Part shown: positions 4,414 to 43,316 of the stretch, piece after piece
Position numbering within the stretch: the stretch's first letter is position 1
How the letters are laid out: each line of letters begins with the position of its first letter
From: Oscillospiraceae bacterium
Lineage (GTDB): Bacteria; Bacillota; Clostridia; Oscillospirales; CAG-272
DNA: 64,000 nucleotides
Direction: 5' to 3'
Assembly (NCBI GenBank): GCA_015064155.1
Contig: SVST01000014.1
Location: 5,003 to 69,002 of the forward strand
Made by a program: the position numbers and the translations under genes
Notes under the pieces: model-generated
The model's database searches: none
What the model was told of the DNA's origin: nothing
What the model saw: the letters and a program-made list of their open reading frames with translations, nothing else

Positions 4414-7400
4414 GTGTATCTGAAGTCGTTGGAATTACAAGGCTTTAAATCGTTCCCCGATAAAACCAAGCTGGTATTTGAAACCGAGGTTCCCGTTGCG
4501 GTAATGGGCGTGGATCCCGAGGTACATGCCGCACAGGGCGTTACGGTGATCGTTGGTCCGAACGGATCGGGAAAATCGAATATTGCCGATGCGATGCGTT
4601 GGGTATTGGGAGAAATTTCATCCAAAAGTCTGCGCGGTTCCAAAATGGAGGACGTTATTTTCGGCGGAGCCGACAGCCGACGTCCCATGGGATATGCGGA
4701 GGTTTCGGTTACCTTTGACAACCGCGGGGAGTTTGCAAAGCTGGATTGTCCTTATGATGAGGTGACCGTTACCCGTCGGTACTACCGCGCCGGTGACAGT
4801 GAATACTTTATCAACCGTAAGGGCGTGCGCCTCAAGGACATTTACGAGCTGTTTATGAATACGGGTATCGGTCGTGACGGATATTCGATTATCGGGCAGG
4901 GTCGTATTGCCGAGATGGTGTCACGAAAGAGCGAAGAACGAAGAAGTGCGTTCGAGGATGCTTCGGGCATTGCGAAATACCGCTATAAAAAGAACGAGGC
5001 GGAGCGCAAGCTCAAGGATACCGAGGACAACATGGCGCGCGCAAACGATATTTTCGTCGAGGTGAGCTCGCGTGTCGGTCCCTTGCAAAAGGAAGCCGAG
5101 AAGGCAAAGCGTGCCATTGAATTGATGGACAGCAAAAAACGTGCCGACGTCAGCCTTTGGCTCTACGATACCGAAAAGCTCAGAGGAGAATTGCGTGCTG
5201 CCGAGGAGGCAATGAATCATGCATCCTTTGACCTTGCCAATGCGGAGGATGGAATACAGTCGCTGAACGTGCAGAACGAGCGTTTGTTCGAGGCAGCGCA
5301 GGGAAGTAAGCAGGAGTCGGAGGCATTGCTCACCAAAATTCGGGAGCAAACCGAGATCTGCCACCGCTTGGAGAGCGAGTATCGCGTGGCGGAAAATACC
5401 GTTTCTCATGCGAAAGATTTGATTGCCGCAACGCAAGGCTCTGTAAACGGCACGCAAAAATCGATTGCCGATGAAATCGAGGCGGGTACAAAGCACGCAC
5501 AGAAGATCGGAGAACTGGAAGCCCTCAAAGATGGCTTGACAGAGGAGCAGAGCTTGCTCATGGGTGAGCAAAGGTTGCTCAACGAAAAGGATCGCGATCT
5601 GGAGGCTGCCGTTGCCAAAGCACTTGAAGATATCCGTGCCTTGGAGAATGAAGCGGTTGACGTAAAGGTTCGTATTTCGGTGTTGGAAAATGCCAAAAAT
5701 ACCGATACCGATAAAAACAGCTCGGCACTTACCGAGCTGGAAGGGTATCGCCGTGTATCCGAGGATCTGCAGGCGCAGTGCGGACAAAAAAAGCACACGG
5801 TTGCCGATTACGATGCACAGATTACCGAGCTTGACCGAGAGGTTGCTTCCTTGGAGCAAGAGGTATCCCGGGCGGCGGAAACCGTTAAAAATGCGAATGC
5901 ACGTCAGAATGGCGAGAGCCTGCGGTGTGATTCGATCCGCCAAAGAATTGCAACCTTCCGTCAGATGGAGGAGCAGTTTGAGGGATATTCTCATGCCATT
6001 CGTTACGTGATGAAGCGTTATGAGGAGGGGAGAATCACCGATGCCCACGGAGCTCCCGCGGGAACCGTGTACGGACCTTTATCCAAGGTGATTTCGGTTG
6101 AGGACCGTTTCCTGACCGCCATCGAAATTGCACTCGGCAATAATCTGCAAAGCATTGTGGTTGAGGATGAATCTACCGCAAAGGCTTGTATGTTTGCTTT
6201 GAAAAAGGCTGAGGCGGGGCGGGCAACCTTTTACCCCCTGACCTCTATGCGTCCCTCAATGGCAACCAAGGAAATGCAGGATGCTGCCGGATTTGCGGGC
6301 TACGTCGGTGTGGCAGACACGCTGGTGTCGTCCGACCGAAAGTTTACCAACGTGCTGTCCTCCTTGCTTGGAAGAACGCTGGTGTTTGAGAACATCGATA
6401 CGGCAACCGTGATGGCAAAGGCAACGGGGTACCGTGTCCGCGTCGTAACGCTGGACGGTCAGCAGATCAATGCGGGCGGTTCGTTTACGGGCGGTTCGGT
6501 TCGAACCGGTAGCGGTATTTTGTCACGTGCGGGCGAGATCAAACGCCTGGAGGAAGAGCTTGGCACGAAGATGGCGGCTCTTGCAGAACTGGAAAAAGAA
6601 ACGCGCGTGCTTGGACAAAAGCTGGAGGAGCTGGAAAATCGAAAGTATTCACTTGAGGATCGCCGTGAGGTTCTTTCGATGCTTCGAAACAGCGAGCAGG
6701 CACAGCTCGAGCAGCTTCAGGCAAAGCTGGATGCCAACAACACGCTGCTGGAAAAATTAAAAGCCGATATGCGCGGTTACGAGCAGGCAAAGCTTCGTTA
6801 CGAGGAAGACATCGTTTCGCTTGCAACCGAAGAAAAGCAGCTGTTACATCGCATTCGCGAGCTGACCGATTACAGAAACGAGAAGAACGGAGAACGCGGC
6901 GACGTAATTTTGCACCGTGATGAGGTTTCGGCACGGTTGACCGAGCTTCAAATCCGGATCAGTGAAACCGAAAAGGATATCGAAACGGCAACGCTTCTCA
7001 AAAACGGAACCGAGGAGCGTTTGGAAAAGCTGAACGGTGAGCTTTTGATGCTTTCGGGTCGAATCAATACGCAAAACGAGCAGATTCGTCTGACCGAAAT
7101 TGCGATGGAGGCAAATCGCGCAGCGTATGCTTCGGGGAGCGAAGAGCTGGAACGCTTGAATACCAAGCGCAGTGCGGTGGAAAACGATAATTTTGCCTTT
7201 GAAAAGAAGCTGAACGATCTGCGTGCAAAATTGCAGGATCGGATGAATCAAAAGGAATTGATCTTCCGTGAGTATACCAAGTGTGAGGCAAAGCTTGCGA
7301 GCCTGCGCGATACGCAGGATAAGCTTTCTACCAAGCTTTGGGATGATTACGAGCTGACGCGCAGTGATGCCGTTGCGCTTGGATATCCTCCCGTTACCAA

Positions 7401-21136: not shown

Positions 21137-21497
21137 TAAAAAGCACACCACTGCTTTGTACTATAAGAGGGAGGAAAGGATGGGAAGCGATAGCCCGGGA
21201 CTCTGAACCCGAACGCGCACCCGAAAGAAAAAGCCGAACTGTAATCTGCGCGCGTTATTGGCAACCGCAGGCGGTTGCAGGGGTTCTTCGATCTCGTACC
21301 GAAACACAAAAAGCACATCACTGCTTTGTACTATAAGAGGGAGGAAAGGATGGGAAGTGATAGCCCGGGACTCTGAACCCGAACGCGCGCCCGAAAGAAA
21401 AAGCCGAACTGTAATCTGCGCGCGTTATTGGCAACCGCAGTCGGTTGCAGGGGTTCTTCGATATCGTACCGAAACACAAAAAGCACATCACTGCAAA
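21137..21497. repeat. 170-bp tandem repeat, two full copies plus a partial third that merges into the tRNA-Arg terminator
   Basis: aagcaca(c/t)cactgc recurs at 21141, 21311 and 21481. Copies 21141-21310 and 21311-21480 differ at 5 positions in my alignment. Confidence 0.9.
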
Positions 21498-21515
21498 GCA
21501 GTGATGTGCTTTTTG
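21477..21515 (-). terminator. Intrinsic terminator of tRNA-Arg (symmetrical, A-tract and T-tract on both sides)
   Basis: aaaaagcacatcactgc-aaag-cagtgatgtgcttttt. Confidence 0.8.
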
Positions 21516-21592
21516 TGGCGCGGCATGAGGGACTCGAACCCCCGACCTTTTGGTTCGTAGCCAAACACTCTATCCAGCTGAGCTAATGCCGC
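21516..21592 (-). tRNA. tRNA-Arg (anticodon ACG), CCA encoded
   Basis: The reverse complement GCGGCATTAGCTCAGCTGGATAGAGTGTTTGGCTACGAACCAAAAGGTCGGGGGTTCGAGTCCCTCATGCCGCGCCA folds as a cloverleaf. It has a 7-bp acceptor stem, anticodon loop CT-ACG-AA, T-loop TTCGAGT, and is 77 nt long. Confidence 0.95.
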
Positions 21593-24331: not shown

Positions 24332-24394
24332 AACAGAAGCAAGCGCGATACGTACCGATCGGTGCGTGTCGCGCTTGCCGTTTTTGTTGATTGA

Positions 24395-25437: not shown

Positions 25438-25560
25438 TATATCTTATCAAGAGTAACGTAGTGACAGGCACGATGATGTTACAGCAACCTGCCGTGGGGT
25501 AAGGTGCTAATTCCTGTTAGATGAGAGCCAAAAAGCTCCCATTTTGCGGAGCTTTTTTGT
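25438..25560 (+). promoter_or_regulatory. SAM-I (S-box) riboswitch with terminator
   Basis: TCTTATCAAGAG ... GCAACC ... GGTGCTAATTCC ... TAGATGAGA matches the S-box P1/P2/P4 conserved blocks. It is followed by aaaaagctcc-cattttgc-ggagctttttt and lies directly upstream of metK. Confidence 0.85.
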
Positions 25561-36118: not shown

Positions 36119-36308
36119 TGCAAAAAAATGCAGGTTTAACAAACTTTTTTGTCAAAAAGTTGTTGACAAAATGCAACTTTTGTATTATAATAATTTCGTT
36201 TCATATGCCGAATGTGCGGTTTTTTTGGGATGGTTTTGCAATTTTGTGAAATTCTTGTCAATCAAACTTGCAAATTTCCCGGCACAATTCATAGGAGGAT
36301 TCATAATT

Positions 36309-37661
36309 ATGAGCATCAAAAACGAGTATTTGCTGAAAGTCATTGAAGACGTGAAGAAGCGTAACCCGGGTGAAACCGAGTTCCACCAGACCGTTACCGA
36401 GGTTTTGGAGTCCCTGGAACCCGTTGTAAACCAGCGTCCCGACATCGTGAAGGCAGGCATCATTGAAATGATGGTTGAGCCCGAGCGTATCATCAAGTTC
36501 CGTGTTCCGTGGGTAGACGATAACGGAAACGTGCAGGTAAACCGCGGCTTCCGCGTACAGTTCAACAGCGCGATCGGTCCGTACAAGGGCGGTCTCCGTT
36601 TCCATCCCTCTGTAAACGAGAGCATCATCAAGTTCCTCGGCTTCGAGCAGACCTTCAAGAACTCCCTCACGGGTCTTCCCATGGGCGGCGGTAAGGGCGG
36701 CTCCGACTTCGACCCCACCGGCAAGTCCAACGGTGAGGTTATGCGCTTCTGCCAGAGCTTTATGACCGAGCTTTCCAAGTATATCGGTGCAGATACCGAC
36801 GTTCCCGCAGGTGACATCGGTGTTGGCGCACGTGAGATCGGCTATCTGTACGGTCAGTACAAGAGATTGCGCAACGAGTTTACCGGCGTTCTGACCGGTA
36901 AGGGAAGATCCTACGGCGGTTCCTTGATCCGTCCCGAGGCAACCGGCTTTGGCGCAGTTTACTATGCAGTTGAAATGCTGAAGTCCTACGGTGAGGATAT
37001 CAAGGGCAAGACCTTTGCAATTTCCGGCTTCGGAAACGTTGCTTGGGGTACCGTTCAGAAGATCACCGAGCTTGGCGGTAAGGTTGTTACCATTTCGGGT
37101 CCCGACGGTTATATCTACGATAAGGACGGCGTAAACACGCCCGAAAAGATCAACTTTATGCTGGAGATGCGCGCATCCTGCCGCAACCGCGTACAGGATT
37201 ACGCTGATAAGTTTGGCGTTCCTTTCTTTGCAGGCAAGAAGCCTTGGGGCGAAAAGGTTGACGTAATCATGCCTTGCGCTACCCAGAACGAGGTTCAATT
37301 GGACGATGCAAAGGCAATCGTTGCAAACGGCGTGAAGTACTACGTTGAGGTTTCCAACATGCCCACCACCAACGAGGCAATCGCATTCCTCAAGCAGAGT
37401 GGTGTTGTAGTTGCTCCTTCCAAGGCAGTAAACGCAGGCGGTGTTGCCGTTTCCGGCTTGGAAATGTCCCAGAACTCCATGCGCTACAGCTGGACTGCAG
37501 AAGAGGTTGACGCAAAGCTGCACGCAATCATGAAGGGCATTTACGACAGCTCCGTTGCCGCTGCAAAGGCATACGGCATGGAGGGTGACCTGGTTGCAGG
37601 TGCGAACATCGCAGGCTTCCTCAAGGTTGCCGACGCTATGCTTGCTTACGGTGTAGTTTGA
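36309..37661 (+). CDS. gdhA: NADP-specific glutamate dehydrogenase
   Basis: ATG at 36309 after a TAGGAGG SD. GPYKGGLRFHP, LPMGGGKGGSDFDP, SGFGNVAWG. Confidence 0.95.
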   Translation: MSIKNEYLLKVIEDVKKRNPGETEFHQTVTEVLESLEPVVNQRPDIVKAGIIEMMVEPERIIKFRVPWVDDNGNVQVNRGFRVQFNSAIGPYKGGLRFHPSVNESIIKFLGFEQTFKNSLTGLPMGGGKGGSDFDPTGKSNGEVMRFCQSFMTELSKYIGADTDVPAGDIGVGAREIGYLYGQYKRLRNEFTGVLTGKGRSYGGSLIRPEATGFGAVYYAVEMLKSYGEDIKGKTFAISGFGNVAWGTVQKITELGGKVVTISGPDGYIYDKDGVNTPEKINFMLEMRASCRNRVQDYADKFGVPFFAGKKPWGEKVDVIMPCATQNEVQLDDAKAIVANGVKYYVEVSNMPTTNEAIAFLKQSGVVVAPSKAVNAGGVAVSGLEMSQNSMRYSWTAEEVDAKLHAIMKGIYDSSVAAAKAYGMEGDLVAGANIAGFLKVADAMLAYGVV

Positions 37662-37686
37662 TTTTCGGATAAGAGAGTTTGTTTAT

Positions 37687-38077
37687 GGAGGGGAGAGGGA
37701 CTTTTCGGAAAAAGTCCCTCTCCCCTCCAAACCACCCCTTACCCCAAAACCTTTACAGAAGAACGAGCGACGGACGAACCGCTAAACACGGCTCGTCCGT
37801 CGCTCGTTCTGCAAACGCTTGTGCGTTTGCAGGGTGATTACGGCATTTTCTCTTGTAGGGGAGGGAACGAAAGAAGCCTTCCCCCGAGGGGTAGCGAAGT
37901 GGCGCGAGGGCAAACTATAAAATACCACCCCCGCAAACGCGAAGCGTTTGCAAGCCCCCACCAAGGCGTGCCGTGTTTAGCGGTGCTACTTGGTGGGGGC
38001 TTTTGCGAAAGGTTTTGGGGCGAGGGGGAGGTATGGAGGGGGAGAGGGGCTTTTTCGAAAAGTCCCTCTCCCCCTCC
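37687..38077. repeat. 391-bp nested-palindrome element: two inverted half-elements of about 170 bp, each with three hairpins
   Basis: Terminal 15-bp-stem hairpins GGAGGGGAGAGGGAC/GTCCCTCTCCCCTCC lie at 37687-37728 and 38035-38077. Inner hairpins lie at 37761-37809, 37810-37831, 37933-37951 and 37953-38001. Confidence 0.85.
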
Positions 38078-38090
38078 AAATCACTTCCTC

Positions 38091-38849
38091 TTATCCAATC
38101 ACTTTCCTCAATGCACACATATCGGCAAGCAGGGGCTGTGCCGGTGTGGCAAGGTCGTCGTATTCGTAAACGCATAGGGTCGTGCAGTTTCCAAGCGTTT
38201 CGCCAACGCGGCGGAGCAGGTGGCATGACGCTCCTCCGCAAAGGAACAAAAAGGGAATCTTCAACTCCTTTTTCAACAGCGTGATCAGGCGCATGGCTTC
38301 CAGCTCTTCCTCTTGGGTGTCGGCTTTGATGACGATCTTGCAAACGTCCGCACCGCGCGCTTGTTGCCCCAAAGCAATCTCCAACACGCGATCCTCGGGG
38401 GTGTGAACGTGCGTGTGCGAGGACATGAGAACCTCCCCGCCCGCCTCGTGGATCGCATCGATCAGCGCCATCTGCTTTTTGACGGCAACCGGATCGGAGG
38501 TGAATTCATCGGGCTGTGGATCGAACAGATCTCCGATCACATCACACAGCGTCGCACCGCAACGGGCAAGCAGGGTCAGCTCTTTTGCCAATACGTCATC
38601 GCTTTTTCCCACGTTTTGCTTGCCGCGGTAGTTGGTAACGTATACGGGAAGACCGTGTGCTTTTTCAAAGAGCATACGGTAGGTTTCTTCGTTGCGGTAT
38701 TCGGGCGGAAATTGGCAAAATTGCATACCGAAGGCTTCTGCGCCAATCGCGTAGGCTTTGTCCATCAATTCGATGGTTCGTGCGGGTGTGGTTGCTTGCA
38801 CCATGGTGGTGAGCAGGGGCTTGTCATGCTTCAAAAAGGTAGGTTTCAT
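38091..38849 (-). CDS. Type I 3-dehydroquinate dehydratase-like TIM-barrel protein
   Basis: VLMSSHTHVHTPE and ADVCKIVIKA align with the AroD NHDFHKTP (catalytic His) and IPKIA (Schiff-base Lys) segments. ATGA overlap with the upstream SDR gene. Confidence 0.55.
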   Translation of the reverse strand: MKPTFLKHDKPLLTTMVQATTPARTIELMDKAYAIGAEAFGMQFCQFPPEYRNEETYRMLFEKAHGLPVYVTNYRGKQNVGKSDDVLAKELTLLARCGATLCDVIGDLFDPQPDEFTSDPVAVKKQMALIDAIHEAGGEVLMSSHTHVHTPEDRVLEIALGQQARGADVCKIVIKADTQEEELEAMRLITLLKKELKIPFLFLCGGASCHLLRRVGETLGNCTTLCVYEYDDLATPAQPLLADMCALRKVIG

Positions 38850-43268: not shown

Positions 43269-43312
43269 AAAAACGGAAACGGGAGAAGCAATTCAGCTTC
43301 TCCCGTTTCCGT
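43269..43312. terminator. Bidirectional intrinsic terminator separating recX from the convergent phage-like operon
   Basis: aaaaacggaaacgggagaagc-aattca-gcttctcccgtttccgtt. Confidence 0.8.
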
Positions 43313-43316
43313 TCGT

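Follow-up and report, generated by a model that had tools for sequence, protein, structure and literature searches.

The intrastrand triplex motif BoxC/PIT of Escherichia coli and other Proteobacteria, also known as TMECO and reportedly described by Hoyne et al. in 2000, is the closest known kind to the element considered here, which lies between the convergent genes gdhA and aroD in a 64-kb stretch of DNA from an Oscillospiraceae bacterium (contig SVST01000014.1). This whole stretch is referred to as the window; coordinates are window positions, and L-numbers denote loci collected from other genomes. TMECO is found in E. coli and in 262 proteobacterial genomes, occurs in inverted pairs as well as singly, marks unstable loci, and shows no orientation bias, lying more often upstream of open reading frames (ORFs) (PMC4666352). 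The physiological relevance of bacterial triplex motifs is still called unresolved (PMC4666352; 2026 review PMC13463272).

The part of the present locus that resembles TMECO is a hairpin, designated A, together with the tail on its 3' side. Both have a G/C-rich hairpin with arms of the (GA)nGGG type, a mirror-symmetric third tract and a linker of 3-5 nt, and both are intergenic, multi-copy, sometimes arranged in inverted pairs, and located at loci that are rearranged between relatives. They differ in strand order, which in the A unit is R-Y-H (class III) on the sense strand and RH-R-Y (class I) on the antisense strand but in TMECO is Y-R-RH (class II), in taxon (Clostridia as opposed to Proteobacteria), and in their stems, which are diverse with co-varying tails in the former and follow one consensus in the latter. 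In addition, the A unit has a T-run/A-run apex that is mirrored by an A-run in the tail, and it lies just past stop codons in a fixed orientation, whereas TMECO shows no orientation bias. The TMECO pattern, 5'-CCCTCNCCC-N3-6-GGGNGAGGG-N3-GGGNGAGGG-3', gave no matches in the window or in 85 loci.

The region between gdhA and aroD reads as two inverted copies of a composite module of ~170 nt, one in the sense orientation behind each of the two genes (Table 1). An earlier note had placed an element with six hairpins, A, B, C, C', B' and A', at 37687-38077. All six are present where they were noted, but the symmetry reaches further, the symmetric unit being 37667-38096 (430 bp). The two halves can be aligned over 168-173 nt with 76% identity and are essentially free of indels. 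They share the terminus, hairpin A, the tail, the loop of hairpin B (15 of 15 positions) and hairpin C, whereas the stems of B and B' are unrelated, exactly as had been proposed. The folding energy calculated for the spacer is -267 kcal/mol for the plus strand and -258 kcal/mol for the minus strand versus about -150 kcal/mol for dinucleotide shuffles (z = -16.7 and -17.0 for the two strands), and its G+C content is 52-57% as compared to 33-41% in neighbouring intergenic regions. Each module comprises, in order, hairpin A, a C/T-rich mirror tail with an A-run and a short T-run, hairpin B, hairpin C, and a G-run leading into a U-rich run, with the G-run after C able to pair with the C-rich tail. 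The motifs of the spacer do not recur in the rest of the window. At the Rfam gathering threshold the locus has no match; sub-threshold hits are limited to look-alikes of eukaryotic miRNA precursors and similar models.

Hairpin A and its tail belong to an apparently undescribed family in gut Clostridia; no description of such hairpin-plus-mirror-tail units was found in the literature searched or in Rfam. The family was sought in 185,579 species genomes with a palindrome-specific pattern of 24 fixed bases, for which ~0.005 chance matches are expected by our own estimate. It was found at 68 sites in 40 assemblies, nearly all of them metagenome-assembled genomes (MAGs) from the gut of ruminants, rabbits and humans that are assigned to Oscillospiraceae, Clostridia or Eubacteriales, and the exact-pattern scan located it on up to 10 contigs of one MAG. 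Of the parts whose copies the earlier note proposed to count, hairpin A recurs; a second copy of the composite was seen neither in these 185,579 genomes nor in viral contigs, phages or plasmids, and hairpin B was found at this locus only. What family members have in common with the window is limited to the hairpin, to which the adjacent spacer is added in some cases. Their design consists of a stop codon, an outer stem, an inner stem of the form GAGAGGGAC-TTTT-loop-AAAA-GTCCCTCTC, and then a tail such as GCTCTCTCCCCAAAAACTTTT. The inner stem is conserved, and the pairs of the outer stem vary yet stay complementary. When ORFs of 100 codons or more stand in for genes, 37 tails lie on the side away from the gene and 8 on the side near it, and the hairpin starts at a median of 17 nt past the stop codon. 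The upstream genes, among them those for GroEL, S20, Asd, IMPDH, GDH and transporters, are diverse and do not clearly point to a single pathway, and the unit occupies orthologous positions in several species.

Some individual members deserve mention. In the MAG CAKRRH01 (human gut, Hadza), the hairpin lies ~30-110 nt from the contig ends in 6 of 10 contigs (L013, L020, L027, L031, L032 and L039), and in L013, L027 and L031 at least it is contained in a longer shared sequence (...CATGCCGCACGGGCACACCATTTCTCATGCAAGAAATGGCGGAAAGTGCATTTAAGGGCTGCGCCCT...), forming part of a larger repeat there. In the MAG JAZTZW01 and its relatives (L053, positions 105-270; L010, 7418-7601; L059/L067), the AAAACTTTTT of the tail runs into an all-A/T hairpin, AAAACTTTTTATAATAAAAAGTTTT, and a second triplex-type hairpin follows ~60 nt further on; there the units are arrayed, and a conserved GTGTGTCATTTTTT...TATACAAA stretch separates them. 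A complete tail and hairpin unit at positions 2900-2960 of L056 is in a Desulfobacterota bin (a Desulfomonilaceae MAG), which suggests bin contamination or horizontal transfer. The site at positions 1289-1316 of L055 (Mucilaginibacter) is an ordinary A-tract/T-tract terminator and a chance match to the pattern.

The tail of the unit is the mirror image of the 3' arm of its hairpin or, equivalently, the parallel complement of the 5' arm, and it is not complementary to anything nearby. Where the 5' arm has G the tail has C, where it has A the tail has T, and the counterpart of the apical T-run is an A-run, equal to it in length in 53 of 72 units. In the window, mirror alignment of the tail of A yields a z-score of 4.1 versus 1.8 for the gene-proximal flank, and the tail of A' matches the reversed hairpin A' at 23 of 25 positions (z = 7.4, 0 of 2000 shuffles), with a value of -0.2 for the proximal flank. 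The collected sequence contains 179 perfect hairpins; a flank that matches the reversed hairpin with z of 5 or more accompanies 33 of them, and the direct/inverted control yielded none. Thirty hairpins with unrelated stems fall outside the search pattern, and their tails match their own stems, as in GGGGAAAAC with CCCTTTTCAAAAAATTTTC and GGGGGAGGGAGGCC with CCCCCTCCTACCCAAAACC. An unselected test gave a score of 7.97 for own flanks versus 6.58 for swapped ones (0 of 5000 permutations), the excess being restricted to hairpins with a T-run/A-run apex. An anchored test allowing a register freedom of ±2 gave a clear though moderate signal, the values being 0.654 for own and 0.542 for swapped tails (p = 5e-6), with composition-kept shuffles at 0.558; outside the search pattern they were 0.600 and 0.480 (p = 2e-4).

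Three independent changes inside the A/T apex that involve all three tracts are seen, in L084 (TTCTT/AAGAA with the tail AAGAA), in L043 (TTTCTTT/AAAGAAA with the tail AAAGAAA), and in L065/L008 (TTCTTTT/AAAAGAA with the tail AAGAAAA). The last of these, with TTCTTTT accompanied by AAGAAAA, fixes the parallel, mirror direction of the tail. An H-type pseudoknot between the A-run of the tail and the U-run of the hairpin was considered and rejected, given that its strands would be parallel.

Along the sense strand the order is purine arm, pyrimidine arm, linker of 3-5 nt, and pyrimidine third strand, which corresponds to class III as defined by Holder et al. (2015; PMC4666352). The antisense strand of the same unit is of class I, with the pH-independent scheme G·G-C / A·A-T / T·A-T. 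To judge from its sequence, hairpin A with its tail has the textbook design of an intramolecular pyrimidine·purine-pyrimidine triplex. Under the ITxF stem rule (6-15 nt, at most one mismatch), A' can be written as GGAGGGGGAGAGGG / CCCTCTCCCCCTCC / CCTCCCCCTCGCCC with 14 triplets and one mismatch in our own reading of the alignment, and A has about 3 mismatches in 13; across the family the relation is statistically significant but imperfect. The unit departs from the ITxF loop rule (1-6 nt): the second loop is 3-5 nt, but the first measures 11-15 nt if the T-run/A-run apex is not taken as part of the stem. Of the intrastrand triplexes, those of the pyrimidine motif are possible in RNA and those of the purine motif are not (PMC4666352). 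Because of the orientation bias, it is the RNA-compatible class of triplex that comes to lie in the mRNA, and this is the main argument for a role at the RNA level.

Hairpin B stands apart from the A family: its stem covaries strongly, and its loop is invariant. The perfect 17-bp stem that had been described for it is there, although 22 bp with one mismatch can be formed alternatively; the loop core is CCGCTAAACACGG. The apex of B' on the minus strand, CCG-CTAAACA-CGG (loop at 37974-37980), is the same as that of B. Six versions, two from the window and one each from L075, L077, L082 and L084, can be aligned without gaps and have six different stems. All but L077, with TTTAACA, carry the apex CG-CTAAACA-CG. 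Over 16 pairs, 87.5% of the cells are paired as compared to 31-44% with slid partners, and 12 of the 16 pairs have changed on both sides in a compensatory manner. The covariation score is 0.758 versus 0.218 when shuffled (0 of 500). Given that the four-fold sites of gdhA are 72% identical between the window and L075, the B stems turn over faster than the synonymous sites of this codon-biased gene; those on the gdhA side can be related to one another via matched indels in both arms. Hairpin B is thus truly under selection as a hairpin, its loop being sequence-specific, and the loop may be a recognition site. The covariation of B in its six versions and the conservation of hairpin A as a family bear out the view of the earlier note, in which a structure-constrained element is present in two copies that have diverged, as opposed to a simple terminator.

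In a stem-aware search of the collected loci, hairpin B was found at the gdhA/aroD locus only. Weak matches to its loop elsewhere were rejected, as they lie inside coding sequence and have no stems. A metagenome scan with CAAAACCTTT-N25-35-AACACGG-N15-35-GCGTTTG produced three chance matches only, in a collection that did not return the known contigs either. The CS-6 element of ssoA and the MOBV nick sites were rejected as being too loose a match for the loop, and the locus is chromosomal and vertically inherited.

Hairpin C shows a compensatory change from G-C to U-A in L077, and the sequence TGGTWTTTT after C is conserved in four modules. Hairpin B of L082 runs straight into UUUAUGUUUU. The predicted sense-strand folds of three modules contain a helix between the beginning of the tail and the G-run that follows C; B and C are enclosed by it, and the U-rich run comes next. 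This helix is kept in the consensus fold but is invariant and hence uninformative. The run at 37832-37857 is accordingly a candidate both for the end of the gdhA transcript and for the 3' strand in a long-range helix formed with the tail. On the minus strand, C' plus GGTGGTATTT gives a terminator-like call; the only terminator calls at the locus are antisense B and C', both on that strand. As had been observed before, there is no U-tract after either terminal hairpin, the sequences following A and A' being CCAAACC and CCATACC. The spacer CCCCAAAACCTTT is at 37742-37754, and its complement is at 38008-38020. Like intrinsic terminators, among them the bidirectional type that separates convergent genes, the modules have G+C-rich hairpins directly downstream of stop codons, with U-rich runs later in the module. 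Hairpin A differs from an intrinsic terminator in that the T-run/A-run lies inside the hairpin rather than outside, the T-run of the tail being 20-25 nt past the stem, and the family has a design and sequence common to unrelated genes and species, such sharing not being a property of ordinary terminators. From the arrangement of these parts, B and C look like the real terminator of each 3' untranslated region (UTR), with A and the tail as an upstream element.

Comparison with relatives shows which part of the locus is maintained. In contigs with an identical aroD protein the spacer is identical, and two of these contigs end at hairpin A. At orthologous loci (aroD 70-83% identical), the convergent arrangement of aroD and gdhA is kept and the spacer ranges from ~120 to 1100 nt. 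On the gdhA side, L075 carries A, the tail, B and half of C, and L077 carries A, the tail, B and C; on the aroD side, L075 has just A' with its tail, L077 has nothing comparable, and L082 and L084 have an A-like hairpin, the tail and B. In L073, hairpin A stands alone behind gdhA and an unrelated hairpin lies behind aroD, and in L085 A is degenerate. The gdhA-side module is conserved in three lineages, and the outer end GGATAAGAG is kept downstream of gdhA in L075 and L085. No conservation is seen for the central region, 37858-37913. Because the relatives carry single modules or parts of them, the unit of conservation is the half-module, always sense to the adjacent gene. Recombination between A and A' as inverted repeats could flip the B-containing segment from one gene side to the other; such a flip would explain why the sequence CCGAGCA is shared by the aroD-side B stem of L082 and the gdhA-side B stem of L075.

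The gdhA/aroD spacer is also a hotspot for insertions. In L075 it contains an element of ~210 bp with long inverted ends, GCACCTCATCCGTCACCTACGGTGCCACCTTCTCCTCAAGGAGAAGGC ... GCCTTCTCCTTGAGGAGAAGGTGGCGGCGAAAGCCGACGGATGAGGTG, at positions 4863-5075, and a gene fragment encoding 106 amino acids of an LRR_5 domain at 5289-5609. In addition, metagenome contigs from several studies end inside the spacer, often exactly at hairpin A (L001, L003, L072, L077 and L082-L084). Palindromes of this sort may systematically interrupt the assembly of gut MAGs, and the family points to one recurrent source of contig breaks.

With respect to function, the best explanation, to which we give about even odds, is that the modules work at the RNA level as structured 3' UTRs, by which the two convergent mRNAs would be ended, protected and insulated from each other. 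The earlier note had listed a pair of convergent structured small RNAs among its candidates. With modules that are sense to each gene and have U-rich ends near the centre, these look like two structured 3' UTRs. The gdhA gene and the aroD operon would be transcribed towards each other, each transcript having a structured 3' UTR of ~190 nt. Comprising A, the tail, B, C and the U-run, this 3' UTR would end the transcript and protect it. In read-through RNA, the two inverted modules would fold together into a very stable hairpin with an arm of ~170 bp, thereby insulating the two genes. The tail may fold back into the major groove of hairpin A as a third strand.

A number of observations weigh against this explanation. 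We infer the RNA ends, the stability and the termination of the modules throughout. No canonical terminator is called for gdhA on the plus strand of the locus, and hairpin A has no adjoining U-tract. As for whether the units replace canonical terminators, a first comparison gave 31% versus 13% and a second 43% of 14 versus 26% of 62 (p = 0.21). In our reading, mismatches of the G-U and A-C types number ~3-4 cases each way and carry no strand signal. The tail at this locus has an ordinary Watson-Crick option with the G-run after C, and some orthologous hairpins, those of L073 and L085, have no tail at all. With a rigid register, the test of the triplex code gave no signal (0.348 for own versus 0.343 for swapped), the mean concordance of the code is only 0.65 even with register freedom, and C-runs in the 5' arms of L021 and L017 are answered by C rather than G. 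Furthermore, a triplex rich in C+·G-C requires protonation of the cytosines, which is disfavoured at neutral pH. TMECO, finally, forms a triplex as single-stranded DNA in vitro, but none is detectable in vivo, and it has neither terminator nor promoter activity (PMC4666352).

The 3'-UTR explanation can be extended to the family as a whole, although we regard the extension as a long shot. Post-gene hairpins of gut Clostridia would use the 3' tail as a third strand, giving an alternate-strand RNA or nascent RNA/DNA triple helix at transcript 3' ends. The pyrimidine motif would be employed on the purine-rich basal arm, with a switch to A·A-U/G·G-C on the apical A-run, and the helix would form or protect the 3' ends. 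In MALAT1 and the PAN expression and nuclear retention element, which are parts of eukaryotic or viral RNAs, U·A-U triples formed with an A-rich tail protect 3' ends. The A unit is similar in that a 3' tract is proposed to fold back into the major groove of an upstream helix in the 3' region of a transcript, and it differs in its predicted scheme, mainly C+·G-C / U·A-U, its pyrimidine tail and its occurrence in bacteria. If true, bacteria would have their own equivalent of the MALAT1/PAN-type 3'-end triple helices, and this would be the first of their triplex motifs to carry a clear functional signature. Relative to the E. coli motif, the A family adds a fixed place (~17 nt past stop codons), a fixed orientation, tails that follow their stems, and orthologous conservation. 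This fixed place and orientation, together with diverse stems whose tails follow them, makes the function of bacterial triplex motifs directly testable.

The first alternative to structured 3' UTRs, which we consider unlikely, is that the units matter only as non-B DNA, with a cruciform-prone hairpin A, an H-DNA mirror repeat or a class I triplex in single-stranded DNA, and have no role in RNA. Such structural repeats would persist or spread and destabilise their locus in the manner of BoxC/TMECO. A mirror repeat is strand-symmetric, and the antisense scheme is independent of pH. Moreover, hairpin A consists of G+C-rich arms around an A/T centre, a composition that favours cruciform extrusion. 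The rearrangement of the spacer in relatives, with its range of 120-1100 nt and its inserted LRR fragment and element with terminal inverted repeats (TIRs), echoes the instability of TMECO loci, and inverted pairs are known for TMECO too. Metagenome contigs repeatedly break in the spacer; these breaks, however, can equally be explained as assembler artefacts at palindromes. The bias in position and orientation (37 versus 8; 17 nt past stops) is unexpected for a purely structural repeat and is not seen for TMECO, and orthologous conservation across species with covarying stems suggests a function.

Quite unlikely, in our estimation, is a stable small RNA derived from the 3' UTR of each module, in which the 5' end would be guarded by A and the 3' end by the terminator, with the B loop CUAAACA, the C-rich tail or both serving as the seed for contact with a target RNA or protein. 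Regulators derived from 3' UTRs are established for other metabolic genes. A conserved loop of 7 nt on a freely varying, strongly covarying stem would suit this role, as would the sense orientation of the module, its U-rich end and the maintenance of the gdhA side in three lineages. On the other hand, no Rfam family rises above threshold at the locus, B follows gdhA or aroD depending on the genome, such that it is not bound to one gene, and the stem-aware search found it nowhere else.

Hairpin A as a repetitive extragenic palindromic (REP) sequence or bacterial interspersed mosaic element (BIME), either spread by a REP-associated tyrosine transposase (RAYT; IS200/IS605-like Y1) or bound by a host protein, seems very improbable. 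REPs stabilise upstream mRNA. They resemble the A unit as short interspersed extragenic palindromes at gene 3' ends and between convergent genes, apparently with several copies per genome, at times in inverted pairs or clusters of alternating orientation, and to that extent the REP/BIME-like character suggested earlier has partial support. The A unit has no REP-like conserved 5' tetranucleotide or head motif, though, its stems differ widely between copies with only the design kept, and its mirror tail is without a REP counterpart; the closest analogue is BoxC/PIT.

The reading of the whole 430-bp unit as a miniature inverted-repeat transposable element (MITE) or other non-autonomous transposable element, likewise raised in the earlier note, has very little to recommend it beyond a typical size, intergenic site and strong predicted RNA structure, as in Correia, RUP and BOX, TIRs of ~88 nt (37667-37754 / 38009-38096, 72% identity, both starting with GGATAAGAG), and contig breaks at hairpin A that hint at repetition. 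A target-site duplication is lacking, the flanks GATTTTC and AATCACT not being repeats. A non-exhaustive search that covered the window, 68 related loci and collections of viral, phage and plasmid sequences yielded no further copy of the composite, of B or of C. What is repeated, A with its tail, spans ~60-70 nt, and its orientation follows the gene next to it. The arms of the 430-bp unit are independent gene-oriented modules, and since the relatives differ module by module, with single modules on one gene or the other, A only or a degenerate A in place of a clean empty site, the mobile-element interpretation is unsupported.

Table 1. Features of the gdhA/aroD spacer and its flanking genes, in window coordinates.
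Feature	Position	Strand	Basis or remark
gdhA (glutamate dehydrogenase), left flanking gene	36309..37661	+	Pfam ELFV_dehydrog and ELFV_dehydrog_N
Left outer end, GGATAAGAG	37667..37675	+	Identical 9-mer, same register, at both unit ends
Hairpin A, perfect 20-bp stem with purine-rich 5' arm and TTTT/AAAA apex	37686..37729	+	Family member
Tail of A, AACCACCCCTTACCCCAAAACCTTT: pyrimidine tract, A-run, T-run; mirror of the 3' arm of A	37730..37754	+	
Hairpin B, stem 17-22 bp, loop CTAAACA (37782-37788) closed by CCG/CGG	37760..37810	+	Covariation
Hairpin C, TGCAAACGC-TTGT-GCGTTTGCA	37810..37831	+	
G-run and U-rich run after C, GGGTGATTACGGCATTTTCTCTTGTA	37832..37857	+	Sense-strand folds
Central non-duplicated region, small imperfect hairpin GGGGAGGG (37858-37865) / CCTTCCCC (37877-37884)	37858..37913	.	
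G-run and U-rich run after C', aroD sense, GGGGGTGGTATTTTATAGT	37914..37932	-	
Hairpin C', GCAAACGC-GAA-GCGTTTGC	37933..37951	-	
Hairpin B', 14-bp stem AAGCCCCCACCAAG / CTTGGTGGGGGCTT, 5x5 internal loop	37952..38002	-	
Tail of A', aroD sense, ATACCTCCCCCTCGCCCCAAAACCTTT	38008..38033	-	Mirror alignment
Hairpin A', imperfect (one G-T / A-C mismatch)	38034..38078	-	
Right outer end, GGATAAGAG in aroD sense	38088..38096	-	Includes the aroD stop TAA (38091-38093)
aroD-like type I 3-dehydroquinate dehydratase, right flanking gene	38091..38849	-	Pfam DHquinase_I; NCBI name of identical protein P0001

The spacer between the two genes is 429 nt, with the gdhA stop codon at 37659-37661 on the plus strand and that of aroD on the minus strand. 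The start of gdhA listed in Table 1 is the probable one and would yield a product of 450 amino acids, the length at which the orthologues are called. A perfect sigma-70-type promoter match, TTGACA-17-TATAAT, is found at 36163-36191 (12 of 12 positions), ~120 nt upstream of that start. The ORF start assigned mechanically, 36171, probably lies too far upstream. Two ORFs over the element, 37821-38177 on the plus strand and 37915-38343 on the minus strand, were dismissed as spurious and have no Pfam match; a gene call over the element in L001 and L003 is the same spurious frame. A G-quadruplex pattern, GGGG-N3-GGGG-N9-GGGG-N3-GGG, is possible on the antisense strand in the window. It was rejected as a general feature, as other units have only two G-runs.

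Elsewhere in the window, there is a SAM-I riboswitch at 25441-25527 on the plus strand (68 bits) and a tRNA gene at 21519-21592 on the minus strand. Directly 3' of the latter lies a perfect 20-bp hairpin with flanking A- and T-runs (21475-21517), which looks like an ordinary bidirectional terminator. A perfect 18-bp hairpin, AACGGAAACGGGAGAAGC / GCTTCTCCCGTTTCCGTT, is located at 43272-43313, and a near-perfect palindrome of 40 nt with no spacer, GCAAGCGCGATACGTACCGA / TCGGTGCGTGTCGCGCTTGC, is located at 24339-24378.

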